Assembly (NCBI GenBank): GCA_947630945.1
Contig: CANRJN010000002.1
Span: forward strand, 1-50,567
Source: an uncultured Bacilli bacterium
Lineage (GTDB): Bacteria; Bacillota_I; Bacilli_A; RF39; UBA660
Length of the DNA: 50,567 bases
Direction of reading: 5' to 3'
The notes under the pieces were generated by a model. It saw only the letters and a list, made by a program, of their open reading frames with translations, searched no databases and was not told the origin of the DNA. Shown piece by piece: positions 9,600-36,865 of the stretch. A program made the translations under genes and the position numbers. Within the stretch, counting starts at the first letter, position 1. Each line of letters begins with the position of its first letter.

Positions 9600-11003
9600 T
9601 TAATTGAAAAAATCTTCCCATGGATCTTTTCTTTTTAATCTTTTAATTGCTTCTTTAATATCTATTTCATTTGGCTCTATTTTATCAAGTTCTCTATAAC
9701 TGATTGGCATAGATACACTGCATCTGTCTCTTAATCTAATTGAATATGGGCAAACACTAGTAGAACCTCTTGTATTTCTTACCCAATCTATAAATATTTT
9801 ACCTTTTCTTTTATCTTTTCTCATATTACTTGTATATTTATCTGGCCATTTTTCTTCCATTAAGACCGCGATTTGTTTTGATGTTTCTCTAAATTTTTTC
9901 CAAGTCATTCTTTTTTTAATTGGAACTACTACATGAAAGCCTTTTCCTCCACTAGTTTTTAAATATGATTTTAATCCAAGTTTATCTAAAATACTTTTTA
10001 AATCTTTAACTCCTTCTCTTAATTTATCTATATCTAATTTTTCATCTGGATCAAGATCAAATACCATGATATCTGGTGTTTCTAATTTTTTAACATTGCT
10101 TCCCCAAGTGTGAAATTCAAAACTATTCATTTGAACTTCACCAATAATTCCACTACTATCTTCTATATAATAGTAGTCTTCCTTTTTATTAGAATCATTT
10201 TTTATTTTAATTTTACCAAGTCCATCATTTTGAGGATTTAAATGTTTCATAAAGAATTTATCTTTACCATTCGGACATCTTATTGTACTAATAATTCTAT
10301 TTTTAACAAGTGGTAACATTCTTTTAGACACTTTATGATAATAATCTGCAATATCAAGTTTAGTTATTTTATCTTTTTTAAATATTATTTTATCTGGATG
10401 TGTTACTTTTATATCTTCTATTATTGCATCTTTTAAAGAAGTAACTTTATTTTTATTTTTCTCATCTTTTTCTATTTCTTTCATAGTTCTATTAGTTCTA
10501 ATACTAGTTTTAATTTTAGTAATATCACTAAACTCATTATATTCATCCCTATCTTTTATTAATAAATAATTATCATCTTTAAAATGAACAAGGGTCCACT
10601 GTCCTTTTAATCTTTTACCATATAGTTTAAACTTAATAACTTTAAATTTAAAATTTTTTGGAAATTTAGTTACTTCTTCATAGTACCCTTCATCAAATAG
10701 CATAACACTCCCAGCACCATATTCACCTGCTGGTATACATCCTTCAAAATTTCTATATGAATATGGATGGTCTTCTACTTTTACTGCTAGTCTTTTATCT
10801 TTTGGATTATATGATGGTCCTTTTGGAACAGCAAAACTTTTAAGAACACCATTAAATTCTAATCTAAAATCATAATGATCTTTTCTAGCAATATGATGTT
10901 GTACTACAAATCTTAATTTCTTATGTTTTTTACTTACTTTTCCACTTGGTTCATTTGTTTTATTGAAATTTCTTTTATTATTATATTTTTTTAAATTACT
11001 CAT
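9600..11003 (-). CDS. LigD-type 3'-phosphoesterase (PE) plus AEP primase-polymerase (Pol) fusion, with no ligase domain
   Basis: The N-terminal segment FVVQHHIARKDHYDFRLEFNGVLKSFAVPKGPS...VEDHPYSY..FEG.IPAGEYGAG matches the LigD PE domain. The C-terminal half (THPDKIIF, MVFDLDPDE, KTSGGKGFHVVVP, IFIDWVRNTRGSTSVCPYS) matches LigD PolDom. There is no adenylation KxDG domain. Confidence 0.85.
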   Translation of the reverse strand: MSNLKKYNNKRNFNKTNEPSGKVSKKHKKLRFVVQHHIARKDHYDFRLEFNGVLKSFAVPKGPSYNPKDKRLAVKVEDHPYSYRNFEGCIPAGEYGAGSVMLFDEGYYEEVTKFPKNFKFKVIKFKLYGKRLKGQWTLVHFKDDNYLLIKDRDEYNEFSDITKIKTSIRTNRTMKEIEKDEKNKNKVTSLKDAIIEDIKVTHPDKIIFKKDKITKLDIADYYHKVSKRMLPLVKNRIISTIRCPNGKDKFFMKHLNPQNDGLGKIKIKNDSNKKEDYYYIEDSSGIIGEVQMNSFEFHTWGSNVKKLETPDIMVFDLDPDEKLDIDKLREGVKDLKSILDKLGLKSYLKTSGGKGFHVVVPIKKRMTWKKFRETSKQIAVLMEEKWPDKYTSNMRKDKRKGKIFIDWVRNTRGSTSVCPYSIRLRDRCSVSMPISYRELDKIEPNEIDIKEAIKRLKRKDPWEDFFN

Positions 11004-11077
11004 AAAAAATCACTCTTTATTAGTATGAGTGATTTATTCACTTTTTATTACGAGTTAATAAATTTTTAGAGAAATAA

Positions 11078-11125: not shown

Positions 11126-11202
11126 GGCGAAATTGGTGAAGTGGTTAACACGGTGGATTGTGGTCCCATTATGCAAGGGTTCGATTCCCTTATTTCGCCC
11201 CA
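11126..11202 (+). tRNA. tRNA-His (anticodon GTG) with encoded G-1 and CCA
   Basis: Hand-folded. Acceptor GCGAAAT/ATTTCGC. An extra 5' G (G-1) sits opposite the discriminator C. Anticodon loop TTGTGGT. T-arm AAGGG-TTCGATT-CCCTT. 3' CCA is encoded. There is one A:C mismatch in the anticodon stem. Confidence 0.88.
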
Positions 11203-11212
11203 CTATAAAAAT

Positions 11213-11240
11213 AACTCACATTGATTTGTGAGTTTTTTTA
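11213..11240. terminator. bidirectional terminator between tRNA-His and the convergent helicase operon
   Basis: Stem aactcaca/tgtgagtt (11213-11220 and 11227-11234). It is followed by TTTTTT on the plus strand and by TATTTTTAT on the minus strand. Confidence 0.65.
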
Positions 11241-11245
11241 TTGTA

Positions 11246-11563
11246 TTAATTTTGTTCACTATATAATATTGCTAATTTAATTATTTTATCAATTAATCTC
11301 ATATTTTGTCCTATTTGCTTTACAAAATTATCACCTAATGAACTTTTAACTTCTTTAATAGCAGTTTCTACATATTTTTCATCTAATTCAAATAATTCTA
11401 AATAATTTAATATAATATCTTGAATAAAATAGAAATCATATTTTTTTAATAATAAATAAATTTTATTAAAGTTATTTTCATCTAATGAATTCAAATAATC
11501 TTCTTCATAATTATCATATATTAAATCTATATAAGTTGAATTTAAATATTTTTCTAAAAACAT
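11246..11563 (-). CDS. hypothetical protein, third gene of the helicase operon
   Basis: I prefer the ATG at 11563, 1 nt after the helicase TAA and preceded by AAAGGTAAAGGTG. The track uses a GTG at 11572. The protein is all-helical and acidic with no recognisable motif. Confidence 0.6.
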   Translation of the reverse strand: MFLEKYLNSTYIDLIYDNYEEDYLNSLDENNFNKIYLLLKKYDFYFIQDIILNYLELFELDEKYVETAIKEVKSSLGDNFVKQIGQNMRLIDKIIKLAILYSEQN

Positions 11564-11564
11564 T

Positions 11565-14500
11565 TTAAACACCTTTACCTTTTTGATTATCTATATAATA
11601 TTCATTTATAATTTCTTCAATTGTAACATTATATTTTTCTTTAAAATCTACACTACTCATAGAAAATATATTAATAAGTACACCATTTTTATCTACAAAT
11701 GATATATTACTTGCTTTTAAAAATTCTATTTTAGAAATTAATTCTTGTTTTGATATTCTCTTTAATATACTTCTATTTTTATTATAATCAATATTATACG
11801 TTAAACAAGTATTTACTATTTCTTCTTGATTTTTTCTAAAACTTAATACAAAACCTATTGATTTTAGCAATTCTTGTTTTTCTTGAGATAGTTTTAAGAA
11901 ATTCCTTCTTTGATTATTAATCCAAATTCCTAATTTAACTCCATTTTCATCATAAGTATATCCATTTGTAGTTTTAAAATTATATGGGATTAATAGATTG
12001 CCATGATGTTCAAAGTATTTTTTTGCAAGACTATAATTATTTTCCCATTGATTTTCTGCAACATTAAATACAAAACCTATTGATTTTAGCAATTCTTGTT
12101 TTTCTTGAGATAGTTTTAAGAAATTCCTTCTTTGATTATTAATCCAAATTCCTAATTTAACTCCATTTTCATCATAAGTATATCCATTTGTAGTTTTAAA
12201 ATTATATGGTACTAGTAAATTACCATAATGTTCAAAGTATTTTTTTGCGAGTTCATAGTTATTTTCCCAAATATCATCATAAACATTTGAAACAAATCCA
12301 ATTGATTTCAATAGTTCTTGTTTATCAGGGGATAAACTTGAAAATTTCTTTCTTTGAGTATTAATCCAAATTCCTAATTTAACTCCATTTTCATCATAAG
12401 TATATCCATTTGTAGTTTTAAAATTGGATTTAATTAATAAATTACCATGATATTCATAATATTCTTTTGCTAGTTCATAATTATTTTTCCATTGATTTTC
12501 TGGAACATTAGACACAAAACCCATTGATTTTAACAATTCTTGTTTATCAGGGGATAAACTTGAAAATCTTTGTCTTTGAGTATTAATCCAACTTCCTAAG
12601 TTAATTCCATTTTCATCATAAGTGTACCCGTCTATTGTTTTAAAGGCTTGTGAAACTAATAAATTACCATAATGTTCATAGTATTTTCTTGCAAGTTTAT
12701 AATTATTTTCCCATTGATTATCTGGAACATTAAATACAAATCCTATTGATTTTAATAATTCTTGTTTATCAGGGGATAATTCTAAAAAATTACTTCTTTG
12801 ATAACAAATCCAAATTCCTAATTTAATTTTTCCATTTTCATCATAAGTATACCCATCATTTGTTCTAAAATTATATGGGATTAATGAATTGCCATGATGT
12901 TCATAATATTTTTTTGCGAAATTGTAATTATTTTCCCAAATATCATCAAAAACATTTGAAACAAATCCAATTGATTTTAATAGTTCTTGTCTTTCAGAAG
13001 ATAAATTTGAAAATCTCTTTCTTTGAGTATTAATCCAAATTCCCAAGTTAACTCCATTTTCATCATAAGTGTATCCATTTGTAGTTTTAAAATTAAATGG
13101 TACTAGTAAATTACCATGATGTTCATAATATTCTTTTGCTAATTTATAATTTTTTCCCCACTTATTATCATGAACACTCAATACTAAGTCTATTGATTTT
13201 AATAGTTTTTGTCTTTCAGAAGATAGTTGTGAAAAATTTTTTCTTTGATGATTAATCCAAATTCCTAAGTTAACTCCATTTTCATCATAAGTGTATCCAT
13301 TTGTAGTTTTAAAATTAAATGGTACTAGTAAATTACCATGATGTTCATAATATTCTTTTGCTAATTTATAATTTTTTCCCCACTTATTATCATGAACACT
13401 CAATACTAGGTCTATTGATTTTAATAGTTTTTGTCTTTCTGGAGACAGTTTTGAAAAATTTTTTCTTTGATTACTAATCCAAATACCCAATTTAATTGTC
13501 CCATTTTCTTCATAAGTATATCCATCTATTGTTTTAAAATTAATTGGTATTAGTAAATTACCATGATGTTCATAATATTTCTTTGCAACGTAGTAATAAT
13601 CTTCCCAAGTCATTGTTAATCTATCACTTACATATCTTAATATCTCAAATAAGTCTTGATTTTCTATTTCAATATCAAATGATGCATCTTTTAATTTTAT
13701 GTTTCTTTTATTTCCTAAACCTTTACTTTGAAGTTCTTTAATTCTATCTTTTAAATTATTTTCTAATTCTTTAATATAATCAAAATTATTAGTTAAATCA
13801 ATAACAATAGGCGCTATTAATTTTTCAATTAAATCTTCTTTTGATTCATTTTCTTTTACTAAGATATCTTTTGATTTACACATTTCAATTAATTCATTAA
13901 TTGAATATTTTTCTAATTCATCAAATTTTTCTTTTGTATTTCCACGAACTGATAGAGCACGACCTAATTGTTCAAAATATACTATATCAGAAGTAGTACC
14001 TCTTCCCATAATAACACCATCTATATTTGGTGCATGCACTCCTTCATTATATTGATTTATAGCAAACATTACACGAAGTTTATTTTCAACTGTTTTTCCA
14101 TCCAAATCTACATCATCATAAAACGCTTCACGATTCTTTTTGCCTTCTTTTCCCATATAACTAGTTGATGTATAAAATATTATGTCTTCTTCTTTTACAA
14201 ATTCTTTAAACCACTTTAATGCTTCACTTTTTATTGTTTCTATATCATTGGTCTTTTCTTCAGACATAGGTGGACAGAAATAAATATATTTTCCATCTGG
14301 CTTTATATTTTTTCTTAAAATATCACTAATGCTAGGAGCTTCATGTATTCTTTTTTTTATATCAGATAAAAGACTCATAAGTTCTTTATATTCATGAGAT
14401 TTCCTATCTAATTTTTGTACTCTTTCTTCTAATTTATTTTCTACATTAATTAAATTAATATAAGCACTTTTATATATTGGTTTTGGTAATATTCCATCTA

Positions 14501-15059
14501 TCATGGCATCACATAAATCATATCTACTTTCTATTTTATTAGAAAATAATTCATCTGTTTCTGGATTTGCCATATCTCTTTCATAAATTGTTCCTCTATC
14601 TCTTACTGTATATGCAGTCATACCAAATATTTTCATTTCAGGATGTGTCTCGATTAAAGTATTTATCCTTTGTCCCCATATAGGAGCACCAATATGATGA
14701 AATTCATCAAGTATTAATAAATCACAATTAATATTTTTTATTTCTTTTCTATTTAATAAAACAAAACTTTGATATGTTCTAAATTCTAAATTAGGAAAAT
14801 CTCTTTCTAAATCTAAATTTTTATTATCATGAATTATTTTTTTAATATGTTCTATTATTCCATTAGAAGGAACTACGTATACTATTTTTTTATCTTTATT
14901 ATCATAAGCTAGTTCTAGTGCATTATATGATTTACCTGTTCCTGTTGCATGAACAATCCCTACTACATTTTGTCCATCATCAAATGCAGATTTTATTTTT
15001 TTATAACTTTCGATATTATGATTATATAAACCAATTTTTTGATATTCATTATTATTCAT
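11565..15059 (-). CDS. SF2 DExH helicase (ResIII-like core) with eight tandem helicase-associated (HA) domain repeats
   Basis: Motif I HATGTGKS, motif II LILDEFHH, motif III GMTAY, motif VI-like EQLGRALS. These are followed by 8 repeats of about 74 aa with consensus W-x-NY-x-LAK-x-YYEHHGNLL-x-P-x-NFKT-x-NGYTYDENG-x-LG-x-WI-x-QR-x-F-x-LS-x-QELLKSIGF, which is the HA (PF03457-type) pattern. I chose the start at MNNNEYQ (ATG at 15059, preceded by GGTGAAG). It overlaps the stop of the 85-aa gene in ATGAATAA. The track extension to 15110 is rejected. Confidence 0.85.
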   Translation of the reverse strand: MNNNEYQKIGLYNHNIESYKKIKSAFDDGQNVVGIVHATGTGKSYNALELAYDNKDKKIVYVVPSNGIIEHIKKIIHDNKNLDLERDFPNLEFRTYQSFVLLNRKEIKNINCDLLILDEFHHIGAPIWGQRINTLIETHPEMKIFGMTAYTVRDRGTIYERDMANPETDELFSNKIESRYDLCDAMIDGILPKPIYKSAYINLINVENKLEERVQKLDRKSHEYKELMSLLSDIKKRIHEAPSISDILRKNIKPDGKYIYFCPPMSEEKTNDIETIKSEALKWFKEFVKEEDIIFYTSTSYMGKEGKKNREAFYDDVDLDGKTVENKLRVMFAINQYNEGVHAPNIDGVIMGRGTTSDIVYFEQLGRALSVRGNTKEKFDELEKYSINELIEMCKSKDILVKENESKEDLIEKLIAPIVIDLTNNFDYIKELENNLKDRIKELQSKGLGNKRNIKLKDASFDIEIENQDLFEILRYVSDRLTMTWEDYYYVAKKYYEHHGNLLIPINFKTIDGYTYEENGTIKLGIWISNQRKNFSKLSPERQKLLKSIDLVLSVHDNKWGKNYKLAKEYYEHHGNLLVPFNFKTTNGYTYDENGVNLGIWINHQRKNFSQLSSERQKLLKSIDLVLSVHDNKWGKNYKLAKEYYEHHGNLLVPFNFKTTNGYTYDENGVNLGIWINTQRKRFSNLSSERQELLKSIGFVSNVFDDIWENNYNFAKKYYEHHGNSLIPYNFRTNDGYTYDENGKIKLGIWICYQRSNFLELSPDKQELLKSIGFVFNVPDNQWENNYKLARKYYEHYGNLLVSQAFKTIDGYTYDENGINLGSWINTQRQRFSSLSPDKQELLKSMGFVSNVPENQWKNNYELAKEYYEYHGNLLIKSNFKTTNGYTYDENGVKLGIWINTQRKKFSSLSPDKQELLKSIGFVSNVYDDIWENNYELAKKYFEHYGNLLVPYNFKTTNGYTYDENGVKLGIWINNQRRNFLKLSQEKQELLKSIGFVFNVAENQWENNYSLAKKYFEHHGNLLIPYNFKTTNGYTYDENGVKLGIWINNQRRNFLKLSQEKQELLKSIGFVLSFRKNQEEIVNTCLTYNIDYNKNRSILKRISKQELISKIEFLKASNISFVDKNGVLINIFSMSSVDFKEKYNVTIEEIINEYYIDNQKGKGV
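11820..13610. repeat. intragenic tandem repeat, 8 units of about 222 bp (the HA-domain array)
   Basis: The period is 222 bp. Positions 11845-11987 are identical to 12067-12209 (143 nt). Positions 13045-13186 are identical to 13267-13408, and the match then continues with one mismatch for about 30 nt more. The other units are more diverged. Confidence 0.9.
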
Positions 15060-15309
15060 TTTCTTCACCATCATATAATTCAATATCAGTAAAATGTTTA
15101 CCTGATACATCTTTATCTATTATTAAAACAGTATCATCTTTCATTATATTTGCATTAAATTCATTTTGTTCTAATTCTATATTTCTAATTTTATTATCAA
15201 CCATTACTTTAAATCCAATATTAGTTCTATCCATTATATCCAAAAGACTACCATTTTTATATTGGTCTGGTATATATACTTCAATTACTTTTCCTATTGA
15301 TTTAATCAT
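15052..15309 (-). CDS. hypothetical 85-aa protein, first gene of the helicase operon
   Basis: The ORF has an AAGGA RBS 8 nt upstream. Its stop overlaps the helicase start. No recognisable motif. Confidence 0.6.
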   Translation of the reverse strand: MIKSIGKVIEVYIPDQYKNGSLLDIMDRTNIGFKVMVDNKIRNIELEQNEFNANIMKDDTVLIIDKDVSGKHFTDIELYDGEENE

Positions 15310-15343
15310 AATTTCACATCCTTATTTAATGCACTACTCTTTA

Positions 15344-15372
15344 TTAATACAAGTGTATCAAATTTCTGACAA
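15344..15372 (-). promoter_or_regulatory. candidate promoter of the 85-aa/helicase/105-aa operon
   Basis: On the minus strand: TTGTCA (15372-15367), a 17-nt spacer, then TATTAA (15349-15344). Confidence 0.4.
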
Positions 15373-15419
15373 AAAGTCTTTATATTATCTAAAATTTACA
15401 AAAATAAATATTGCATAAA

Positions 15420-15450
15420 ATAAAAAGTGTGTTTAGAATTAATAACACAC
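15420..15450 (-). terminator. rho-independent terminator after the 609-aa HExxH protein gene
   Basis: Stem gtgtgtt/aacacac (15427-15433 and 15444-15450), followed on the minus strand by TTTTTATTTT. Confidence 0.6.
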
Positions 15451-15462
15451 CTATTTTACATA

Positions 15463-17292
15463 TTATCTTTTTAATATTTCATTTGTTATATTATTAGCAT
15501 TTTCATATACATAATTTTCATTAATAATTTCACTGTATGATTTTTCTTTATGTCCCTGTGAATTAGAAATAAATGATTTATGAAAATTATATAAATCTAA
15601 AAATTCATGAACCCATTCACATCTAGTTGGATTATTTAATAATTTTAATATAATTTGTTTGCTTTTTTCTTTTTCACACTTACTTTGTATATCTTCTATA
15701 TTTAAATTGTTAGTATAGTAAAAAGTCCTTTTTAAGGCATTAATTACATCTAAATATACATCTTCTAAAGTTTTATCATCAATAGATTCTATATCTGATA
15801 TTTCTTCATCATCTATTTCTTTATTTGTGCAAGAAAGAAACCAATCATATGCAAATAACACTATTTTTTTAATATATTCATCTTCTACAATAAATCCATT
15901 ACTACGAAATTTAACTACTCTTGTTTCGTTTTTATCACTTTCATTATTACTAACATAAAAATTTTCAATAAGAATTTTCATATCACTAAAACCTAACTTT
16001 GAAACTTTATTTGGTAATATTATAGGATTTTTAATTGTATCAGTATTATCTAATTCTCTATAATCATTTGCTAAACAAAATCCACAATTATTTAATTCCC
16101 ATTTAATAGCACAAAATAATTTTCTTCTTTCTAATATATCATTACCAGGAATATTAATATAATTATCCACATCAATTTGAATAAGAAGTTTAAAAATATA
16201 TGATGATAATTCTGGATTTGAACTATAATATAAATCTTTATATATCATTGAAGATAATATTGTACTAGTAACTGCAGAATTTATTTTACCTAATAAATAT
16301 ATTTTTCCATCTCTTGATACAAATAATTTTTTTAAGTAATCATTTCCAATTTCTTTATATTCTTCATAAATAAATGAAGTTGTATTTATTTCTTCTGATT
16401 TTTTTACTAATTTTTTCTTTTCTAAATCAAGTTCATTATCACTAATATTAATATATTTTAATAACATATTTTTTACTTGAAAAGAAAATGCTTCATCACC
16501 ACTTAAATTTAAAAATAAATTATTAATATATTTATTTTTTTCATTAGGATTTAATTTTTTAATATAAGGAATTACTATATTTATTATTAAATCATTTAAT
16601 AAATAATTAACTTTACGAGAATAAATATCTTTTAAAACACTTTTATCAGCACTATTATATTCCTTAGCTATTATTATATTCAAAGCAGATAATTTAATAT
16701 TAAAATCATTATAATATTCTTTATCTTTTGTTAATTCAAAAAATTTTTCTTTTAATAATTTATTATTTTTAAAATATGATTCACATATAATGTCATTACC
16801 AAAAGTTACTCTTAGTATTTTTGCAAATATTTTCATTTCATTATAACTTCTCATATATTTACTTTCTGTATATCCACATATATCATCTGTTAACATTTCA
16901 GTTATACCTTCATTTAATCCCGTATAATCAACTGATGAAGATTTATCAATTAATCCTGAAGAAACAGAACCTTTTGCTGCTACATGTAAAAGTTCATGAA
17001 TTAAACTACGCTCTTCAAATTCAGTTGCTGAAGTAACAAATGATAATAAATTTCCTTTACTATCTACTCTACAAGAAGATGAATTAATAATAATTAATGA
17101 TTCAGGATTGTTAAAAGAAACTTGCATAGCCACATAATTAGGCAAATTATCAATTTTAATTTCTTTTATTTTATTCATTTTATCTACTAACAATTTAGTA
17201 TCTATCCCATACAAAAGAGAACATCTTTGAGATATTTTATTAATATAAGGCTTTAATATATTTAACGGTAACTCTTTAATCATTAATAACAT
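15463..17292 (-). CDS. large protein with an N-terminal gluzincin-like zinc metallopeptidase motif and an uncharacterised C-terminal 450 aa
   Basis: SLIHELLHVA (HExxH) is followed 25 aa later by GLNEGITEML, which resembles the thermolysin-type HExxH...NExxSD arrangement. The rest is helical and low-complexity with no recognisable domain. Confidence 0.7.
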   Translation of the reverse strand: MLLMIKELPLNILKPYINKISQRCSLLYGIDTKLLVDKMNKIKEIKIDNLPNYVAMQVSFNNPESLIIINSSSCRVDSKGNLLSFVTSATEFEERSLIHELLHVAAKGSVSSGLIDKSSSVDYTGLNEGITEMLTDDICGYTESKYMRSYNEMKIFAKILRVTFGNDIICESYFKNNKLLKEKFFELTKDKEYYNDFNIKLSALNIIIAKEYNSADKSVLKDIYSRKVNYLLNDLIINIVIPYIKKLNPNEKNKYINNLFLNLSGDEAFSFQVKNMLLKYINISDNELDLEKKKLVKKSEEINTTSFIYEEYKEIGNDYLKKLFVSRDGKIYLLGKINSAVTSTILSSMIYKDLYYSSNPELSSYIFKLLIQIDVDNYINIPGNDILERRKLFCAIKWELNNCGFCLANDYRELDNTDTIKNPIILPNKVSKLGFSDMKILIENFYVSNNESDKNETRVVKFRSNGFIVEDEYIKKIVLFAYDWFLSCTNKEIDDEEISDIESIDDKTLEDVYLDVINALKRTFYYTNNLNIEDIQSKCEKEKSKQIILKLLNNPTRCEWVHEFLDLYNFHKSFISNSQGHKEKSYSEIINENYVYENANNITNEILKR

Positions 17293-17455
17293 CTATGGAT
17301 TTAAATTCTTTTTGTTCTTTTTCAGATAATTCTTCATAAAAGATTTCGCCATCTTTTTCTATTACTTTAGAAAATATTTCCTTATCATCTTTAAGAAATC
17401 TTGCCACTTTACCATATTTAGTATTTTCAATATACTCAAGTAAAATTAATTCCAT
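17276..17455 (-). CDS. unannotated 59-aa ORF (MELILLEYIENTKYGKVARFLKDDKEIFSKVIEKDGEIFYEELSEKEQKEFKSIDVIND)
   Basis: Not in the supplied track. The ATG at 17455 is preceded by AAAGGAGG with a 6-nt spacer. Its TAA at 17276-17278 overlaps the start of the 609-aa gene by 17 nt. Confidence 0.5.
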   Translation of the reverse strand: MELILLEYIENTKYGKVARFLKDDKEIFSKVIEKDGEIFYEELSEKEQKEFKSIDVIND

Positions 17456-17474
17456 ATATCCTCCTTTTTTTAAT

Positions 17475-17504
17475 ATTATACACTATTTTAACTTCATTTG
17501 TAAA
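17475..17504 (-). promoter_or_regulatory. candidate promoter of the 59-aa/609-aa unit
   Basis: On the minus strand: TTTACA (17504-17499), an 18-nt spacer, then TATAAT (17480-17475). It lies immediately upstream of the GGAGG RBS. Confidence 0.4.
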
Positions 17505-17728
17505 TTCACTCTGTAATTCTTAAGTTTTTCCTTTGTTGCTTTAAATCTCATTGTTATATAAGGGCTGTATTAGATGCACGAACTAAAGCAAAAACATAAT
17601 CAAATTTTGCTTTTGCTCCATCAATTGTAATATAATTATAATTCTTTCCACATTATTCTTATACATTAATAATATAATTCTATCATAATTATGAATGTTT
17701 TAAAAGTAATCTATAATTTAATCCTTAA

Positions 17729-17760
17729 ATAAAAAGAAGAGATAAATTAGTCATCTCTTC
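17729..17760 (-). terminator. rho-independent terminator overlapping the stop of the YugP-like gene
   Basis: Stem gaagagat/atctcttc (17736-17743 and 17753-17760), followed on the minus strand by TTTTTATTT. Confidence 0.55.
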
Positions 17761-18430
17761 TCCCAAATAAAAGTATCAATCTTAATATTTGAATTAATGT
17801 TGTAGCAACACTAGCAACATAAGTAAGTGCTGCTGCTATTAAAACTGTTTTTCCATTTTTTAACTCTTTACTTGTTAAAAAGTGAGAATAGTCTAGTTCC
17901 TTTAATGCACGAGAACTAGCATTTATTTCTACCGGTAATGTTACTAATTGGAATAAAAGAATTACTATTTCTAGCAAAATACCAATCCATATTAAATTAA
18001 AAGCACCAAATATTACACCAAGTAGAATTGCAAAATAACCAGCATAAGATGAAAAATTAACAACAGGTACTAAACTAGATCTTATTTTCATAAATACATA
18101 TCCATCTTTATCTTGAAGTGCATGTCCACATTCATGACAAGCAACACTTACACTTGCAATTGAAGTACCATTATAATTATTTCTTGATAATCTTATTACT
18201 TTTGATCTTGGATCATAGTGATCTGTCAAATATCCATCTACTTCAACAACATCTACATCTTCTAATCCATTTTTATCTAATACATATCTTGCCGCATCAC
18301 GTCCACTTAAATTTCTTTTATTATCTACTTTTAAATACTTTCTATAAGTAGAATCAACAAATAATTGTGCTAATACTGTAATTATAAGGGCTATTATAGT
18401 TAACCCATATGCTATAAAATAGTAATCCAT
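17747..18430 (-). CDS. membrane zinc metallopeptidase (YugP / Zn_peptidase_2 family)
   Basis: N-terminal TM helix, then YRKY...N..G.SG...A, then HECGHALQ, then C-terminal TM helices. This is the typical YugP-like layout. Confidence 0.85.
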   Translation of the reverse strand: MDYYFIAYGLTIIALIITVLAQLFVDSTYRKYLKVDNKRNLSGRDAARYVLDKNGLEDVDVVEVDGYLTDHYDPRSKVIRLSRNNYNGTSIASVSVACHECGHALQDKDGYVFMKIRSSLVPVVNFSSYAGYFAILLGVIFGAFNLIWIGILLEIVILLFQLVTLPVEINASSRALKELDYSHFLTSKELKNGKTVLIAAALTYVASVATTLIQILRLILLFGRRDD

Positions 18431-18442
18431 TTTTTATACCTC

Positions 18443-18685
18443 CTAATTACTTAATAATCTAATATAATTTTTTATTTCTCTATCATTTAATACTTTTCCT
18501 TGACTTACAACTTTATCATTTATTACTAAGGCTGGTGTATTAGAAATATTATAATGAAGAATATGTTTTTCATCTTCAATCAATTCAATTTCTACTTTTT
18601 CTTTACTATCTACCATTACCTTATTTATATTTTTTAATAATTTTGTTCTATTACTTGAATTTTTTCCTAAAACTTTTATTTTCAT
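18443..18685 (-). CDS. thioredoxin_3-like small protein lacking the CxxC motif
   Basis: 80 aa. MKIKVLGK....TKLL.N......... plus STPALVINDKVVSQGKV match the small redox-active disulfide protein family. The position of the CxxC motif reads NSSN, and the protein contains no cysteine. Confidence 0.6.
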   Translation of the reverse strand: MKIKVLGKNSSNRTKLLKNINKVMVDSKEKVEIELIEDEKHILHYNISNTPALVINDKVVSQGKVLNDREIKNYIRLLSN

Positions 18686-18849
18686 TAAATTTCCCTTTCT
18701 TTATTATTATACAAAATATTATAAATTTTATCTACTTATATTATCATCTCCTTTAACTTTACATATTCTATTTTATTATTAATTTATTAACAATCTATGA
18801 TTATTTTATTAAAATTTATTAAAAAGAAAGACAAATTAAATTTATTAAT

Positions 18850-20142
18850 TCATCTTTCTTTTTCCTTATAAACAGGTAACTTTATTTTAATTACAAAACC
18901 ATTATCATTATACGCGCTAATTGTTCCATTATGAATTTCAACAAATTCTTTACAAATTGATAAACCTAAACCTGATATTTTTCTTCCTGCATCTGTTGTA
19001 AAAAAGGGATCAAATATTTTATTTATATTTTCTTCTTCTACACCTTTTCCATTATCACTAATTAGAAATACAATATAATCATCTTGCTTACTTATATCAA
19101 TACTTATTTTACCATTTTCAGGAACAAACTTTATACTATTTGATATTATATTTGAAAATACTCTTTTCATTTTCAAAATATCAACATTTAATTTTTCTTT
19201 TTCACAATTTGTTTTAATTTTAAAATCTATATTTTTATTATTTAATTCTATTTTATAGTCATCATCTAACTGTTTTATTATATCTTTTATACTAATTAAT
19301 GATAACTTTAATTTCTTATTATCATAATTTGCAAGATAATCATCAAAAGTTCCTAGTATATCTTTAATATGTAATGCTTTATCATGTACTTTATTACTAT
19401 ATTCCTTTAATTCTTTTTTTGTTAAATTATCTTCCATTAAAGAAGAATATCCAATTATAGATGTAAGAGGTGTTTTTATATCATGAGATATACTTGCTAT
19501 TATCCTTTTTTGTTCTTGTTTTTCTTCTTCTAATGAATCAACTAAATTAACAAATTCATTTTGAATAACATCAAGTTCATTATTTATTTCATTTCTAATA
19601 GGCTTTTTTCCAAATTTATAATTTCTAATATCATTTATTATTTTTTCTATTGGGGTAATTATTGAATGACCTGCTAGTAAATAAGTAAAAATCATTAATA
19701 AAACTATAATTATAATTTGAAATATAATTAATGATAATATTAAATTAGTAATTCTTACATTATTTGGAAGATATGCACTAATTACATAATTATTATTTTG
19801 TATCTTAATAAATTTATTAAACAAACACATATCATTTTTTTCTAACTTACCTATTTTTAATATTTGATTATTTTCATTAATTATTTCAAAATTAATTTTA
19901 TATTCATTTGATATATTTTTTAAATCTTCTTCTAAATTTATAAATGATTTATAGTTATTATTTAATTTTTCATTCATAACTATTTGTTTTATATTACCTA
20001 TATTTTGTAATGTAGGTTTTATTTTAATTTCATACCAAAAACTAAGAGAAAGAACATTTATAAAAACAATAACAAATAAAGTAATTAAAAAATTTCTTCT
20101 AACTTTATGTTTTTTTAAAATCTTATTCATTTTCATCAACAT
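18850..20142 (-). CDS. sensor histidine kinase
   Basis: Two TM helices flank an extracytoplasmic domain. H-box SHDIKTPLTSI, N-box NIISNSIKF, G-boxes SDNGKGV and GLGLSI. Confidence 0.9.
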   Translation of the reverse strand: MLMKMNKILKKHKVRRNFLITLFVIVFINVLSLSFWYEIKIKPTLQNIGNIKQIVMNEKLNNNYKSFINLEEDLKNISNEYKINFEIINENNQILKIGKLEKNDMCLFNKFIKIQNNNYVISAYLPNNVRITNLILSLIIFQIIIIVLLMIFTYLLAGHSIITPIEKIINDIRNYKFGKKPIRNEINNELDVIQNEFVNLVDSLEEEKQEQKRIIASISHDIKTPLTSIIGYSSLMEDNLTKKELKEYSNKVHDKALHIKDILGTFDDYLANYDNKKLKLSLISIKDIIKQLDDDYKIELNNKNIDFKIKTNCEKEKLNVDILKMKRVFSNIISNSIKFVPENGKISIDISKQDDYIVFLISDNGKGVEEENINKIFDPFFTTDAGRKISGLGLSICKEFVEIHNGTISAYNDNGFVIKIKLPVYKEKER

Positions 20143-20818
20143 TCTTTATAAATTTATAACCATAACCCCATATAGTTATAATATATTTATCATTATCTTT
20201 AAGTTTATCTCTTAAATTTTTAATATTAACAGCAACTGTTCCAATATCACCATATTCACTACCCCAAACTGATTCATAAATTTGTTCTTTTGAAAGTACA
20301 ATTCCTGCATTTTCCATTAAAAATCTTAAAAGTTCAAATTCTCTTGTTGATAAATCTACTTTTTCATTATTACATTTAACTTCATAACTTTCAGTATTTA
20401 GAGTAATTTTTCCAATACTAATTATTTTACCTTTTCTATTATTGTTTGTTCTTTTATTTAATCTTAAATGAGATTTAACTTTTAATACAAGTTCTGTATT
20501 ATCAAATGGTTTAGTAATATAGTCATCTCCACCTATTTCATAACCTACTATTTTATCTACCATATCACTTTTAGCAGATACAAATATTATTGGTATATTT
20601 ACAATATCTCTAACTTTTGAACATAATTCAGTACCACTAATTTCATCCATCATAATATCTAATAAAATTAAATCATAATCAAAGTTTTCACTTTTTATAA
20701 ATTCTAATGCTTCTTTTGAATTGTTAATAATTTTTGAATCAATTTGCTCTTTTTTTAATATTAAAGATATTAATTTAGATATATCTTTATCATCATCTAC
20801 AATTAATACTTTTGACAT
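20123..20818 (-). CDS. OmpR-family response regulator
   Basis: Receiver domain (VLIVDDD, LILLDIMMD, SAK) plus a winged-helix output domain (LSTREFELL..., WGYGYKF). Confidence 0.92.
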   Translation of the reverse strand: MSKVLIVDDDKDISKLISLILKKEQIDSKIINNSKEALEFIKSENFDYDLILLDIMMDEISGTELCSKVRDIVNIPIIFVSAKSDMVDKIVGYEIGGDDYITKPFDNTELVLKVKSHLRLNKRTNNNRKGKIISIGKITLNTESYEVKCNNEKVDLSTREFELLRFLMENAGIVLSKEQIYESVWGSEYGDIGTVAVNIKNLRDKLKDNDKYIITIWGYGYKFIKNVDENE

Positions 20819-20863
20819 ATAATTACCTCCATAATTATTAATGTATTATAACATAAAGTTTAT

Positions 20864-21460
20864 TTATTTTTTTAATTCTTTTAAGTTTTCTTTCATAAGA
20901 TTCATAACAGTATTATATAATTTTTTATTTGCATCTTCTAAACTCATATTATTAACTTTAAATGGTTTTCCAAATCTTATCATTAATTTAGAACCTTTTT
21001 TATATTCTCCTGATATACCAAATGGAACAATAGTTGCATTTGTTTTTTTAGCAAGTGATACAGCACCAAATTTAAATGGTAATAAAAATTCTTTTGTTTT
21101 ATTTCTTGTACCCTCTGGAAATATACCAATAGCGCCATTATTTTTTAATACATTAATTGCTTGTAATTTTGCATTTTCATCTTTAATTTCACGATTTACA
21201 GGAATACAACCTGTTATTTTAAAGAACCATTTAAAATTTCCATCAAAATATTCTTTCTTTGCCATGTAATGAATAATTCGTTTAGTTGAAATAATAACAG
21301 AACATTGATCTAATATATGCATATGATTACCACAAATAATTATTGGACCTTCTTTTACAATATTTTCTTTATTAATAATTATTGGTTTATAATATGATTT
21401 AAATATGAAACCTAATATTGGCTTAAATAATTTATACCCCCATGTTTTTAGTTTTTTCAT
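20864..21460 (-). CDS. lysophospholipid (1-acyl-sn-glycerol-3-phosphate) acyltransferase family protein
   Basis: HX4D motif NHMHILD and FPEGTRN motif. Confidence 0.85.
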   Translation of the reverse strand: MKKLKTWGYKLFKPILGFIFKSYYKPIIINKENIVKEGPIIICGNHMHILDQCSVIISTKRIIHYMAKKEYFDGNFKWFFKITGCIPVNREIKDENAKLQAINVLKNNGAIGIFPEGTRNKTKEFLLPFKFGAVSLAKKTNATIVPFGISGEYKKGSKLMIRFGKPFKVNNMSLEDANKKLYNTVMNLMKENLKELKK

Positions 21461-23201
21461 ATTTTAGTTTTTCCTCATCTTCTAATAATTTATAATTTAC
21501 TTTGTTATATAAAGTAATTGGTAAACTATCTCTAAATTCAAATTCTTTTGGAATAGAATAAACATCTAATTCTTCTTCACATATATCTTTAATTTCTTTT
21601 TTTATTTTGCTAGTTAACTCTACATCTTTCTTTAATACGATAAATGCTTTTGGTACATGTATTTTATATGGATGTGGAATTCCTACTACACATACTTTAT
21701 TTACAGCAGGATGTTTTAATATTGCTTTTTCTATAATAGATGGATATACATTAAATCCAGATACTAATATCATTCTTTTTATTCTTGATGTAAAATATAC
21801 AATTCCATTTGGTGAAATATAACCTACATCTCCTGTATGTAACCATCTTTTTCCATCTTCATCTATTTTAATTACTTTATTTGTTTCTTCTTCATTATTT
21901 AAATAACCCATCATAAGTGTTGGTCCATTTACACATATTTCTCCCTCTTCACCAAAAGGCACCTCTTCCATAGTTTCAGGATTACAAATTTTATAATTAT
22001 TACCAACCATTGGAATACCTATACTTCCAGGTTCATTTGTTCCAGGGAAAGTATATGCTGTTGCTGCAACACTTTCTGTCATTCCATAACCTTTTAAAAT
22101 ATTAACTTTTGCTCCGTGTTTATGTAAAAAATTATTAATTTTTGTTTCTGCTTGAACTGATAAATAATCTCCACCACTAATAATATATTTTAATTGTGAC
22201 ATATCAACATCATCAAATCTTTTATTTGACATCATTCCTTCCCATAAGGTTGGAACACCTAATATTACATGTGGTTTATCTTTTTTCCATATTTTATAAA
22301 ATCTATTCGCGTCATACTCTGGCATAAGAATTGTTTCTACTTTTAAACAAATTGGTGTATGAATACATATACCTAAACCAAAACCATGAAATATTGGAAG
22401 AACTGTAACAATTTTATCTCTTGGTCTTACATCTATAACATTAACTGCACTTTGTTGAGCCATAGCATTAAAACTATAATTTGAAATCATTATTCCTTTT
22501 GGTGTTCCTGTTGTACCACCACTATGAAGAATTAATGCTAAATCATTACAATCTATTTCTGCATGATATTCTCTTAAATTAGAATTTCCATAACTCATAA
22601 ATTCTTTATAACTCATATAAGCAGAATCTTTTAATGATGGTCTTTTAGTTTTAATACTACGAGTTAGAGTATATCCTATATTTAAACCAATTGGCATACT
22701 TTCTTTTGGAGATACAAGAATAGTTTTATATACTAATGTCTCAGGTATTACATCTTTCATTTTTTCATAATCAAAGTCTACTAAAAACAAATATCTTGAT
22801 GCAGATTCATTTAAATAAAATTTTAATTGTTCCCTACTTGATAAAGGATGAATAATATCAGCAACTGCTCCTATCTTATTGATAGCATAAAAAATATAAA
22901 TTGCTTCTGGCATATTTGGTAAGCAAATTGTGACTACATCTTTTTCTTTTACACCAAATTCTCTAAGTGCTCTTGCACAAGTATTAATTTGTTTAAAGAA
23001 ATCATTATAACTAATTTTATTTCCAAAATAATTTAAAACTGTATAATCAAGATCATTACCAACTTCACTTACCATATAATCATAAATTGATTTTTTAGTA
23101 AATTTTATAGTTCTTTCTTTTCTTGAATAATAATCAAGCCAAGGCTTATCTTTCTTTTTGTCCTTAAATAGTCTAATAAAAAAATTACTTATTGTTCCCA
23201 T
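21432..23201 (-). CDS. AMP-forming acyl-CoA synthetase / long-chain fatty acid ligase family protein
   Basis: AMP-binding motifs LHSGGTTGTPKG, GYGMTE, HTGDVGY and the C-terminal IPK. Confidence 0.9.
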   Translation of the reverse strand: MGTISNFFIRLFKDKKKDKPWLDYYSRKERTIKFTKKSIYDYMVSEVGNDLDYTVLNYFGNKISYNDFFKQINTCARALREFGVKEKDVVTICLPNMPEAIYIFYAINKIGAVADIIHPLSSREQLKFYLNESASRYLFLVDFDYEKMKDVIPETLVYKTILVSPKESMPIGLNIGYTLTRSIKTKRPSLKDSAYMSYKEFMSYGNSNLREYHAEIDCNDLALILHSGGTTGTPKGIMISNYSFNAMAQQSAVNVIDVRPRDKIVTVLPIFHGFGLGICIHTPICLKVETILMPEYDANRFYKIWKKDKPHVILGVPTLWEGMMSNKRFDDVDMSQLKYIISGGDYLSVQAETKINNFLHKHGAKVNILKGYGMTESVAATAYTFPGTNEPGSIGIPMVGNNYKICNPETMEEVPFGEEGEICVNGPTLMMGYLNNEEETNKVIKIDEDGKRWLHTGDVGYISPNGIVYFTSRIKRMILVSGFNVYPSIIEKAILKHPAVNKVCVVGIPHPYKIHVPKAFIVLKKDVELTSKIKKEIKDICEEELDVYSIPKEFEFRDSLPITLYNKVNYKLLEDEEKLKYEKTKNMGV

Positions 23202-23778
23202 GTTTTTCTCCTTTTTTAATTAATTTTTTAACTTTTTCTCTTAATTTATTATTTTCATATTCTAAATCATTACTTTGAATTTTATAAGGTTTATCAAAAA
23301 TAATAGTAAGATTATTTTTGAAAAGTTTATATTTTCCTATTATTGCAAATGGAATTATTTCACTATCTGTATCATAAGCCATTTTTACTGCCCCTATTTT
23401 AAATGGTAATAAACATTTTCCTTTTTCAGTAGTTCCCTCTGGGAATATTCCAACGACAAAATTGTTTTCTAAATATTTTTCTGCTTTTTCTAATGCATTA
23501 TGATCTTTTCTATTTCTATTTACAGGAATTAAACCTAAATTTGAAAATATAATTTTTTTAAATCCTTTAAATAATTCGCTTTTAGCAAGAAAATGAATAT
23601 TTCTATTTGTTGAACTAATAAGTAAAATACAATCTAAATTATGAGTATGTGTTCCTGCTAAAACAATTCTTTTGTTTAATGGAATATTTTCTATTCCTAT
23701 ATATTTTGGTCTAAAAACTAAATTTGTAAATATTTTAATAATAGGTCTTACAAAACTATATAACTTTGATTCTTTCAT
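23185..23778 (-). CDS. second lysophospholipid acyltransferase family protein
   Basis: HX4D motif THTHNLD and FPEGTTE motif. It overlaps the downstream ligase gene by 17 nt. Confidence 0.85.
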   Translation of the reverse strand: MKESKLYSFVRPIIKIFTNLVFRPKYIGIENIPLNKRIVLAGTHTHNLDCILLISSTNRNIHFLAKSELFKGFKKIIFSNLGLIPVNRNRKDHNALEKAEKYLENNFVVGIFPEGTTEKGKCLLPFKIGAVKMAYDTDSEIIPFAIIGKYKLFKNNLTIIFDKPYKIQSNDLEYENNKLREKVKKLIKKGEKHGNNK

Positions 23779-23947
23779 ATCTTACACTCTAATTATACAC
23801 TAAAACTTTCTAATATAATTATATAAATTAATTTATTAAATAATTATTTATTTTTTATTAAGAATTATTAAACTAATTCAATCATAAAATTCTTTTAATA
23901 TTCCTATATAATTACTATCTATTAAATAATAAAAGAGCACTCATGCT

Positions 23948-24514
23948 CTATTTAAATCTTTTTTCAAATATACTACTTATTTTCTTAACATCTTTTTTAA
24001 TAATTATCATGTCAATTATATTTAATATTGAGTGAACTATAATCATTATACCAACAAATATAGTTAATGAATATGATGCTGCAAAAGGATTAAATATAAC
24101 AATTATACTTACAATTAAATCTAGAATACCAAATAACATTAATGTAACCCATGGTGCATCCTCATCTTTTAATGATATTGCTAGTTTAATAGAATTAATA
24201 CTTGACACACAAATCCATACACCTATTCCAATTGTAAATAATGTTGGAAGTATACTTGGTTTACTAATAAGTAAAATACCTATTAAGATAGATAATATAC
24301 CAGGTAACATACCATCAAATGGAATATAGTATTTATATGCATTTATGTCTAAGATAACTAAAATAATACCATGTAAAATAATATAAATAGATATTATTAT
24401 TCCAATTGTTTTAATTGACATACTTGGATATATTATCATGATAAGTCCTACAATACACGCAATAATTGATGAAAAAATTATTGAATTTGTTGTTCTTTTA
24501 AATGCTTCTTTCAT
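23948..24514 (-). CDS. HdeD/DUF308-like multi-pass membrane protein
   Basis: Six evenly spaced hydrophobic helices with repeated G-I-x-x-I-x-x-G patterns. The family assignment is tentative. Confidence 0.5.
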   Translation of the reverse strand: MKEAFKRTTNSIIFSSIIACIVGLIMIIYPSMSIKTIGIIISIYIILHGIILVILDINAYKYYIPFDGMLPGILSILIGILLISKPSILPTLFTIGIGVWICVSSINSIKLAISLKDEDAPWVTLMLFGILDLIVSIIVIFNPFAASYSLTIFVGIMIIVHSILNIIDMIIIKKDVKKISSIFEKRFK

Positions 24515-24593
24515 TTTTTTCCTCCATAATATTCATTGTAAAAATTATTTATTATTATTTTTATATAAATTTATTAAGAATTATTAAAATATT

Positions 24594-27143: not shown

Positions 27144-27154
27144 AATTACCTACC

Positions 27155-29584: not shown

Positions 29585-29685
29585 ATTTACACCTACCCTA
29601 TACTAATATGATTATATCACAAAAGTATATATATATATATTAAAAAACATTTTTGAAATAATTAATCAATTATTATTTTTTAAAA

Positions 29686-30381
29686 TTATTTTATTTCAAA
29701 TTCAACTGATGAATTAATTTCATAACTATGATTATTATTTTTAAGGAAATTACGAATTATTCTATATCTACCATTTGGTAATTCACCATATATGTTGCTC
29801 CAATCAAGTTTTTCTTCAATTTGTTGATTTGGTCTAAATCCATATGCCATCATTGTACCTGACATTACTCTCATAAGATTCCATTTATTATTTTCATAGT
29901 GTTCAACATAATAAATAGCGCCATAATAAAATTTACTATTTGTATTATTTTTCATAATTAAAGTTAAACCTGTTTTTGTAAGTGAATTATCTTTTATACT
30001 CAATGAAATTATATTATTACTTGTTCTAAATTCTGATCCAATATCTTTATTATCATCATATGTAGGACAATCAAATTTATTAAATTTAAATTGCCAATCT
30101 ACACTAATTGTATCTTTATTCATTTCACAGTAATAAGTATCCATAAGTAGTCCTTTATTAACATAACTATTATCTTTAAGTTCTTTCTTTATACTAAAAA
30201 ATGGACTATTTTTTAAAATTCTTGCTTGAAGTGTATCTATTAAAATTATTAATATGATTAAAGGTATAATAATTATAAAAATTCTTTTAATTGTTTTTTT
30301 ATTTGTATCTTTTTCTTTTATTTCTTCTTTTACAGTTTTTTTATCTTTTGATTTATTTACTTTTTCCTTCTTATTTTCCAT
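29686..30381 (-). CDS. membrane-anchored hypothetical protein with an extracytoplasmic beta-rich domain
   Basis: K/E-rich N-terminus, one TM helix (IFIIIIPLIILIILI), then about 170 aa ending in LPNGRYRIIRNF, which is typical of small Ig-like sandwich domains. No catalytic motif. Confidence 0.6.
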   Translation of the reverse strand: MENKKEKVNKSKDKKTVKEEIKEKDTNKKTIKRIFIIIIPLIILIILIDTLQARILKNSPFFSIKKELKDNSYVNKGLLMDTYYCEMNKDTISVDWQFKFNKFDCPTYDDNKDIGSEFRTSNNIISLSIKDNSLTKTGLTLIMKNNTNSKFYYGAIYYVEHYENNKWNLMRVMSGTMMAYGFRPNQQIEEKLDWSNIYGELPNGRYRIIRNFLKNNNHSYEINSSVEFEIK

Positions 30382-30454
30382 AGTATCCTCCTATAACATA
30401 ATATAATAAAATATAATAAAAGTAAATCACTAAAAATAATGATTTACTTATTAA

Positions 30455-36860: not shown

Positions 36861-36865
36861 TATAC

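Follow-up and report, generated by a model that had tools for sequence, protein, structure and literature searches.

A conserved, relocatable HA-helicase trio and an independent gene pair probably displaced from glmM lie side by side next to tRNA-His in an uncultured Bacilli bacterium

The window analysed here is a stretch of 50,567 bp that makes up one complete metagenomic contig of an uncultured Bacilli bacterium (GenBank assembly GCA_947630945.1, contig CANRJN010000002.1), and the region under study is a 6.2-kb part of it next to the gene for tRNA-His. An original prediction, made from the letters alone, had grouped the five open reading frames (ORFs) of this region into a single defence-like island, with a large helicase as sensor or motor and a 609-aa protein with a HExxH motif as effector. 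According to our analyses, the region very probably holds two independent units: Unit A, a trio of genes coding for a superfamily 2 (SF2) DExH helicase and two small proteins (p85 and p105), and Unit B, a gene pair (p59 and p609) displaced from the vicinity of glmM. The three genes of Unit A form a conserved operon that relocates horizontally, and the helicase among them belongs to a known kind, the HA-domain SF2 helicases, with a previously undescribed set of partners. The p59/p609 pair was found in none of 79 helicase loci of other species, and a lineage-specific rearrangement would have put the two unrelated operons side by side in the 6.2-kb stretch. All five ORFs lie on the minus strand at the positions first assigned to them and, since each has homologues elsewhere, they are real genes; the overlaps between them, the eight HA repeats, the adjacency to tRNA-His and the HExxH motif were likewise all found. 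The components of Unit A, in the order of transcription, are these:

15052-15309, minus strand: p85, 85 aa, predicted OB-fold protein; its stop overlaps the helicase start as ATGAATAA
11565-15059, minus strand: SF2 DExH helicase, 1164 aa, with a ResIII domain and eight HA domains; motif I GTGKS, motif II DEFH
11835-13588, minus strand: HA repeat array within the helicase gene, 8 x 74 aa with a 222-nt period (Tandem Repeats Finder: 7.8 copies over 11845-13588, 83% match); repeat families D1-D4
11246-11563, minus strand: p105, predicted helical; start ATG at 11563, 1 nt past the helicase TAA (11565-11567)

The distribution of the trio was examined by scanning one genome per species (185,579 species genomes), and from the 128 stretches that matched, 79 loci were retained. 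The operon is present in uncultured gut Bacilli of low G+C content, where it was met in over 100 species. Nearly all of the matches come from metagenome-assembled genomes (MAGs) that bear the labels uncultured Bacilli, Tenericutes or Clostridium sp. CAG:710 / CAG:433 and stem from the gut of rabbits, humans (Hadza), goats and deer. In about 65 of 85 loci, p85 is found immediately upstream of the helicase gene, and p105 follows immediately downstream in about 38; when flanking ORFs were clustered, no other neighbour recurred in more than seven loci, and the operon occupies many distinct sites in the chromosomes. Both junctions within the trio are translationally coupled. Moreover, the gene order can be permuted and yet the three genes stay together (p85-p105-helicase in locus L057, helicase-p85-p105 in L085), which argues for a functional linkage. 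The sequences that precede p85 have only the ribosome-binding site in common from one locus to another, so that the conserved unit is the operon itself, without transposon-like ends. The tightly coupled, helicase-centred trio proposed at the outset is thus borne out well beyond the genome in which it was first noticed.

That the operon relocates is best seen in loci where it accompanies mobilisation genes. In L008-L010, the order runs from an ABC-3C pair (MC6, DUF2326) through Mob_Pre, p85, the helicase gene and helix-turn-helix (HTH) genes to a large serine recombinase, and p85-helicase begins 65 nt after the Mob_Pre gene, on the same strand; in these loci, the trio is located between relaxase and recombinase and hence within an integrative mobilisable element (IME). 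A serine recombinase and Mob_Pre flank the trio in L008-10, L026/27, L031, L089 and L173-L182, while L056 has Mob_Pre without the serine recombinase; counted within 7 kb, Mob_Pre occurs in six non-redundant loci and serine recombinases in four. The commonest p85 variant (P0186) was met in 2233 index blocks of the assembly collection, on contigs of up to 1.2 Mb. Its block comprises a HATPase_c_3 gene (GHKL ATPase) on the opposite strand, then SLFN_AlbA_2/HATPase_c_4, p85, helicase and p107; the SLFN gene is coupled to the start of p85. Next come a gene for 329 aa, Mob_Pre, TnpV and a large serine recombinase. This five-gene block, 6.9 kb long, is shared by L173 (4488-11362) and L181 (4492-11317) at 93% nucleotide identity and with an identical p85, between different flanks and beside serine recombinases that differ between the two. 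In loci of the L173 type, the Mob_Pre/TnpV/recombinase module is on the other strand, three ORFs away from the trio. Separately, we observed that the SLFN gene is shortened in several strains (383 vs. 444 aa).

Elements of the Tn4451/Tn4453 family combine a large serine recombinase (TnpX), TnpV and a Mob/Pre relaxase (TnpZ) with cargo genes (PMC5704250). The trio of the relatives occupies such a cargo position, within or beside serine recombinase/TnpV/Mob_Pre elements, whereas the window is devoid of any mobility gene and the trio there is fixed next to tRNA-His. As for other vehicles, GenBank phages gave one weak match only, and the 2.9 million viral contigs of IMG/VR yielded no relative of the trio, either with single sequences or with alignment-derived patterns; a phage origin was rejected on these grounds. 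On plasmids, the helicase core gave six weak tblastn matches (25-32% identity; E <= 1e-5), none of them in Streptomyces, while its HA region matched 499 plasmids, mostly of Streptomyces (300), Pseudomonas and Rhodococcus.

The helicase comprises a core (aa 1 to ~495), eight tandem HA domains (aa ~495-1075) and a C-terminal tail of ~90 aa. Its maximal ORF (11565-15110) would encode 1181 aa, but the true start is the ATG at 15059, where the protein opens with MNNNEYQ; the longer frame is an overlap artefact, because the called orthologues start at the equivalent ATG. Pfam recognises ResIII (E 4.7e-13) and eight copies of HA (PF03457; E 1.6e-126), the SF2 motifs are intact, with GTGKS and DEFH invariant in 16 orthologues, and a match to the PHROG_16 DNA helicase reaches E 9e-23. 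Homologues of the core number more than 1000, and the top 120 of them, which differ in length, show 70-79% identity. Among orthologues with cores 57-94% identical, the number of HA copies varies from 2 to 11 (mode 5-6). HA is described as a three-helix DNA-binding domain (NMR structure of Mills 2013, as cited in PMC12191111). Most MAGs have a single copy of the gene; one carries two separate copies, and tandem pairs of HA-helicase paralogues occur in six loci. The range of HA copy numbers is visible across the helicase genes of L007-L091 (e.g., L051 9977-14041; L080, L082, L083, L085, L087, L090).

The only solved relative by sequence is PDB entry 7clg, a SauUSI-type helicase, over part of the RecA2 lobe (55-85 residues; E 4e-7 with a single sequence, 9e-12 with a profile). 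SauUSI-type proteins (7clg; PADLOC model mREase_IV) are the closest solved and defence-library relatives of the RecA2 region, and they share with the Unit A helicase the layout of an ATP-dependent translocase followed by a C-terminal DNA-recognition module. The differences lie at both ends: the Unit A helicase is without the N-terminal PLD nuclease, its RecA1 lobe beginning directly (motif I about 37 residues from the N-terminus), and it has a C-terminal HA array instead of an SRA-like reader. A weak RadD-like match was also obtained in the N-lobe.

Among proteins with an experimental record, the Streptomyces TtrA, a subtelomeric "conjugation helicase" with tandem HA domains (10.1101/2024.11.13.623437), has the same N-terminal DExH/ResIII core and tandem HA layout, as well as a link to mobile or transferable DNA. 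However, the Unit A core matches no Streptomyces plasmid copy at E <= 1e-5 (the TtrA sequence itself was not compared), Unit A has no linear-replicon or telomere context, and its helicase has two dedicated partners, whereas none is described for TtrA in the literature searched. The small partner, in turn, recalls HelP (ICEBs1) and OrfL/OrfM (ICESt3), which act together with PcrA, a UvrD-family helicase of the host, and with MOBT relaxases (PMC3542172, PMC12614216): p85 is a small protein with a predicted OB fold, coupled to a helicase and next to a relaxase gene in some relatives, a likeness of layout. Unlike them, p85 has an SF2/HA helicase as its dedicated partner; most loci have no relaxase gene, and the relaxases that do occur are of the Mob_Pre (MOBV) kind.

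The p85 ORF ends in ...GAAAATGAATAA, and its stop overlaps the helicase ATG at 15059. All of its 299 homologues are standalone proteins of ~85 aa. No match to p85 was found in Pfam, NCBIfam, PHROG or PADLOC, and sequence and profile searches of the PDB were empty. The AlphaFold2 model (pLDDT 79) is a five-strand beta-barrel, and the top Foldseek matches are all OB folds (LEF-3 bound to single-stranded DNA, RPA, Mpa, HIN-200), with probabilities of 0.9-0.99 and a TM-score of ~0.5, at non-significant E-values (E >= 0.17). For p105, the maximal ORF (11246-11572) would give 108 aa, but the protein has 105 because the N-terminus MFLEKYL is conserved in 37 orthologues. Searches of Pfam, PADLOC, NCBIfam, PHROG and PDB returned nothing for p105, in which aromatic or hydrophobic residues make up most of the invariant positions.

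From these data, we infer that the products of Unit A assemble into a translocase complex that binds DNA and is driven by ATP, and that the unit travels as horizontally mobile cargo acting on DNA. The 1164-aa protein would be the ATP-driven SF2 DExH translocase or helicase, with its C-terminal array of eight HA modules binding DNA; p85 would probably be an accessory binding single-stranded DNA or the helicase, and p105 probably an adaptor or regulator. Most likely, such a complex would act as a conflict- or defence-type translocase, with the HA array as its means of recognising foreign or mobile DNA; either of the small partners could be the effector, or it could be provided in trans. We base this conflict-type reading on the type IV-restriction-like core, the SLFN and GHKL partners of the fuller form (which match the PADLOC models mad8 and REase_II), the position as IME cargo and the hypervariable repeat array, to which may be added the Fic and type I HsdM genes found next to tRNA-His in L097. 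We hold the explanation as a whole, conflict-type function included, only tentatively, and, if anything, a shade more tentatively still the assignment of Unit A to conflict/defence-type DNA-translocase cargo.

Several observations weigh against that assignment. The PADLOC v2 system models are matched by none of the five proteins; scans of Pfam, PADLOC, NCBIfam and PHROG revealed no nuclease family in the helicase, p85 or p105, the trio contains no recognisable effector, and no catalytic motif appears among the invariant residues of p105. The OB fold of p85 is itself a prediction, drawn from a pLDDT-79 model and Foldseek matches at E >= 0.17. The neighbours of the helicase gene are mostly housekeeping (SMC, FtsW, NusB, SRP54, SpoIIGA, RNase J), with a minority identified by Pfam as HTH, AAA_21, SLFN_AlbA_2, relaxase, TnpV or Mob_Pre; about 5-15% are similar to genes of defence systems or mobile genetic elements, some of them SMC/ABC false positives. 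No strong enrichment in defence genes was seen near the helicase at 80 loci with two genes considered on each side, a test narrower than the usual +/-10 genes and hence a weak negative. As regards mobility, conserved non-coding ends were not found, so that the trio is not itself a transposable unit. In L007, the five-gene block is present without mobilisation genes, and in some genomes it may accordingly lie beside, not inside, an element. Finally, conservation of the helicase core between species is good (57-94%) and, between the window and its closest relative, the trio has diverged in step with its flanks, which indicates vertical inheritance there.

In database terms, the first impression held: Pfam, NCBIfam, PHROG and PADLOC scans give no housekeeping assignment for the genes, and named defence systems (Hachiman, Gabija, DISARM, Druantia, Zorya, Mokosh) are not matched, PADLOC returning a single weak local match of the helicase to mREase_IV (E 7e-8) and nothing for the other four proteins. 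A defence-like role for Unit A alone is possible. In a more specific version, which we find doubtful, the trio, with SLFN/AlbA_2 and GHKL ATPases in its fuller form, would be the core of an undescribed anti-mobile-DNA system of uncultured gut Bacilli, spread as Tn4451-like cargo and without a canonical nuclease, in which a translocase would read DNA through an HA array that quickly gains and loses modules, the OB-fold partner would capture the unwound strand, and the DNA of phages or plasmids would be the target of interference.

Two other functions compete with the conflict-type reading. According to the first, Unit A processes mobile-element DNA: the helicase and its OB-fold auxiliary would serve the unwinding, replication or transfer of excised mobilisable-element DNA, and the copy in the window would be a stranded remnant. 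TtrA, with its tandem HA domains, is implicated in the conjugal transfer of replicon ends (bioRxiv 10.1101/2024.11.13.623437), and OB-fold proteins, the fold predicted for p85, are essential relaxosome or helicase auxiliaries in ICEBs1 and ICESt3 (PMC3542172, PMC12614216); the HA arrays on 499 plasmids and the start of p85-helicase 65 nt past Mob_Pre in L008-L010 point the same way. Yet ~90% of loci have neither relaxase nor recombinase in the flanks examined, the L007 block does without mobilisation genes, the L173-type trio and the mobilisation module are on opposite strands with three ORFs between them, and the core has no close relatives on plasmids and none among the viral contigs. We regard this function as rather doubtful.

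According to the second, Unit A is a lineage-specific host helicase for DNA maintenance (repair, recombination, replication restart), inherited mostly vertically in Bacilli with reduced genomes, its changing contexts reflecting low synteny and its IME neighbours being coincidental. Such a role agrees with the housekeeping neighbours, the strong conservation and the single copy of most MAGs, the co-divergence of trio and flanks, the weak RadD-like match, the synteny with spoIIGA/sigE shared by L019 and L023, and the gene for a LigD phosphoesterase/Prim-Pol protein that adjoins in both the window and its closest relative. It does not account for the 6.9-kb block that recurs at 93% identity, with p85 unchanged, in two contexts beside recombinases, nor for the trio inside an IME in L008, the two copies in one MAG, the tandem paralogues and the hypervariable number of HA domains; a count of only 128 stretches across 185,579 species genomes also speaks against it, suggestively at most. 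We consider a host-maintenance role unlikely.

Unit B, by comparison with its relatives, belongs elsewhere. Its components in the window are the following:

17276-17455, minus strand: p59, 59 aa, overlapping the p609 start by 17 nt
15463-17292, minus strand: p609, gluzincin-like, with HELLH (99-103) and LNEG(I/V)T (126-131), followed by large helical and alpha/beta regions
17490-17660, minus strand: degenerate 3' stub of glmM (~aa 391-449 of 455), between the YugP-like gene and p59, in two pieces with an internal stop

In relatives, p59 (52-81% identity) always stands immediately upstream of the ~600-aa gene. Ten homologues of p609 were retrieved by word search and 195 cluster representatives by an exhaustive search with hidden Markov models. 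In every locus of the family that was fetched, the order is (275-287-aa protein), glmM, 59-60-aa ORF, ~600-aa protein, alpha/beta-hydrolase, Mur ligase and D-Ala-D-Ala ligase; these loci represent four lineages besides the close relative of the window (31-80% identity) and include a 267-kb contig and an NCBI MAG. No helicase gene occurs at any p609-family locus examined. In the window, only 15420-17660 is similar (87% nucleotide identity) to the closest of these native loci (L003), a span that takes in the terminator, the p59 and p609 genes and the final ~200 nt of glmM. The stub marks the upstream breakpoint of the displaced segment (blastn to L003 ends at 17660), the GlmM proteins of the relatives match the window by tblastn at 17490-17660 only, and the window contains no intact glmM, hydrolase, Mur ligase or Ddl gene. 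Because p59/p609 and the glmM stub are all that matches the native locus, Unit B is best described as a displaced (or duplicated) 2.2-kb segment, and since no intact glmM is present in the window, the genome must carry glmM elsewhere or the contig is rearranged.

With Unit B unrelated to the helicase, the "sensor helicase plus effector" scheme loses its proposed effector, p609 being one half of a displaced glmM-murF-ddl neighbourhood pair. A role of Unit B, if it has one, would more likely lie in the metabolism of cell-envelope precursors than with the helicase. The residues H99, E100, H103 and E128 show no variation among 10 sequences or in the paralogues of 275-287 aa, LNEGIT lying ~25 residues past HE(L/V)(L/F)H in both. 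The segments holding the third ligand of gluzincins read "LNEG" in family M1 and "NEAxSD" in M4, and LNEGIT of p609 is similar. Given the invariance of HELLH and LNEG(I/V)T, a gluzincin-type active site is plausible from sequence. p609 thus shares HExxH and a downstream Glu third ligand with the M4 and M1 gluzincins, whereas it has no GxMEN motif, bears an additional C-terminal region of ~400 residues and matches no curated family or PDB entry. Neither p609 nor p59 falls into a family of Pfam, NCBIfam, PHROG or PADLOC, and sequence and profile searches of the PDB with p609 were empty. Its full-length AlphaFold2 model (pLDDT 79) gave no significant Foldseek match, the best being zincins (4l7a, SPRTN 6mdw, ERAP1), all at E > 1; in a model of several domains, the signal of the N-terminal zincin domain is probably diluted. 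Pfam scans of remote relatives found an N-terminal HopA1 on one fusion protein and a weak EzrA, both uninformative. The protein is cytoplasmic as far as can be judged from its sequence, which has neither signal peptide nor membrane segment.

A side observation concerns the native locus, where glmM is flanked on both sides by paralogues sharing HE(L/V)FH...LNEGITD, of 275-287 aa upstream (L001 7617-8444, L006 3604-4467, L183 4548-5411) and ~600 aa downstream. This paralogous HExxH...LNEGIT pair around glmM, in a glmM-murF-ddl neighbourhood, is an uncharacterised feature linked to the cell envelope.

The independence of the two units is also apparent in the closest relative, the MAG Lapin-026__bin53 (~88% nucleotide identity), where Unit A is found on contig 16 (locus L013) and Unit B on contig 30, at glmM; because this MAG carries them apart, the adjacency of A and B is specific to the contig studied here. 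In L013, the trio lies next to tRNA-His and LigD as in the window, with a helicase core 94% identical at the amino-acid level, but extra small ORFs stand between p105 and the tRNA gene, and an HTH gene between the tRNA gene and LigD. Such indels around tRNA-His indicate local plasticity. The extra ORFs (L013 13801-14519 and 14877-15941) code for proteins of 79 and 146 aa, without a family match, and for a 354-aa HTH_3 protein, none of which the window has. On the other side, a single 235-aa ORF (within L013 8877-9717) separates the trio from the equivalent of window position 30431, at the place where the window has ~15 kb of ordinary chromosomal genes (15345-30431: a two-component system, two acyltransferases, an AMP-binding enzyme, DUF308, two ABC/FtsX fusion transporters), with Unit B at its edge.

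One might object that the juxtaposition of A and B, together with the 15-kb block (15,345-30,431), is an assembly chimera. Three facts lend weight to the objection, and the first of them counts against our account of a genuine rearrangement: the window is a whole metagenomic contig of 50,567 bp, the closest relative is ordered differently at both junctions, and glmM, an essential gene, is present as a stub only. Nevertheless, the junctions share no repeat that could have misled the assembler, the stub is degenerate, as expected of a decayed real fragment, and the several other small indels around tRNA-His in the relative show the region to be truly plastic, so that a chimera appears quite improbable. 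As to the five-gene island of the original prediction, it can hardly be right: its genes are adjacent and on the same strand in the window, none is assigned to a known pathway and the region next to tRNA-His varies in relatives, but the two units were never met together elsewhere, be it at helicase loci, at p609-family loci or in the closest MAG, an outcome that the prediction itself had named as grounds for refuting it, Unit B is native to glmM and carries a glmM stub here, integrase, att repeat and compositional signal are all absent, and PADLOC is negative.

The tRNA-His position is a variable spot, and nothing indicates tRNA-targeted integration. The caution first expressed about mobility at this site was justified, in that integrase is absent and an 8-nt match to the 3' arm of the tRNA does exist at 17343-17350. 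This 8-mer (ATTTCGCC) is present but within the conserved coding sequence of p59, the other two matches being the acceptor stem of the tRNA itself; as it is the sole match to the tRNA 3' end, a tRNA-derived att repeat was rejected. No integrase or recombinase family was recognised in the ORFs scanned from 9.6 to 30.4 kb, and a repeat search found no flanking direct repeat except one imperfect AT-rich pair, so that tRNA-targeted integration is without support from either an integrase or an att-type repeat. The comparison of the locus across related genomes, proposed from the beginning, confirmed that the site varies: the closest MAG has the trio there with extra small ORFs, and a distant relative (L097, 8677-13008) keeps LigD-tRNA-His with a Fic-domain protein and a type I HsdM methylase downstream of the tRNA instead of the trio. 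An informative empty site was not found in metagenome contigs using LigD as anchor (closest match 64% identical), and an exact-sequence look-up of the p609 and LigD of the window gave no record. The imperfect pair just mentioned is a 20-nt direct repeat (11012-11031 / 15336-15355; 17/20 nt) that brackets tRNA-His and Unit A; it is probably an AT-rich chance match, and L013 has extra genes within that span.

The remaining features around the two units are given below:

11127-11202, plus strand: tRNA-His (GTG), called by ARAGORN, converging on the 3' end of Unit A
11213-11234, both strands: bidirectional hairpin resembling an intrinsic terminator, common to tRNA-His and Unit A (terminator scan, 8-bp stem)
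15344-15372, minus strand: possible Unit A promoter, TTGTCA-17-TATTAA, seen by eye only and not called by the scan
15420-15450, minus strand: hairpin and T-run 3' of the 609-aa gene, likely the Unit B terminator, seen by eye only and not called by the scan
17475-17504, minus strand: best sigma-70-like promoter match of the region, TTTACA-18-TATAAT (scan, 11/12 consensus), inside the glmM remnant

Of the signals first proposed, the scan therefore recovered the promoter at 17475-17504 and the terminator at 11213-11234, and did not recover the other two. Promoter-like matches in the region barely exceed those in shuffled sequences (85 vs. 70.9 ± 7.3) of such AT-rich DNA. The hairpin at 15420-15450 is also the downstream edge of the segment in common with the glmM locus of the relative, the homology to L003 stopping at 15420. 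The window has ~23% G+C throughout and nearly all of its genes on the minus strand, and the G+C content of the region (0.19-0.26) is that of the rest, without any compositional deviation. The flanking genes proposed at the start were confirmed by domain matches, with a LigD_N and LigD Prim-Pol protein on one side and Zn_peptidase_2/YugP on the other; LigD and tRNA-His are adjacent in L013 and L097 too. The "LigD-like" protein (window 9600-11003) has 3'-phosphoesterase and primase-polymerase domains only, with no ligase domain. Further away, a tRNA-Ile(GAT)/tRNA-Glu(TTC) pair (36784-36941), downstream of ORFs of the size of gyrB and gyrA, is kept in L013.

Altogether, a false lead is removed, since the metallopeptidase-like neighbour stands outside the helicase unit. 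HA-domain helicases are widely annotated, and TtrA is the only one for which a functional study was found in the literature searched. What is new here is one clade of these helicases with two dedicated small partners, a clade that is widespread among uncultured Bacilli of low G+C content in the gut of humans, rabbits and ruminants, where it moves as cargo with mobilisable elements. For these bacteria, a compact unit of three to five genes is now defined, on which questions of defence, anti-defence or DNA transfer may be asked.

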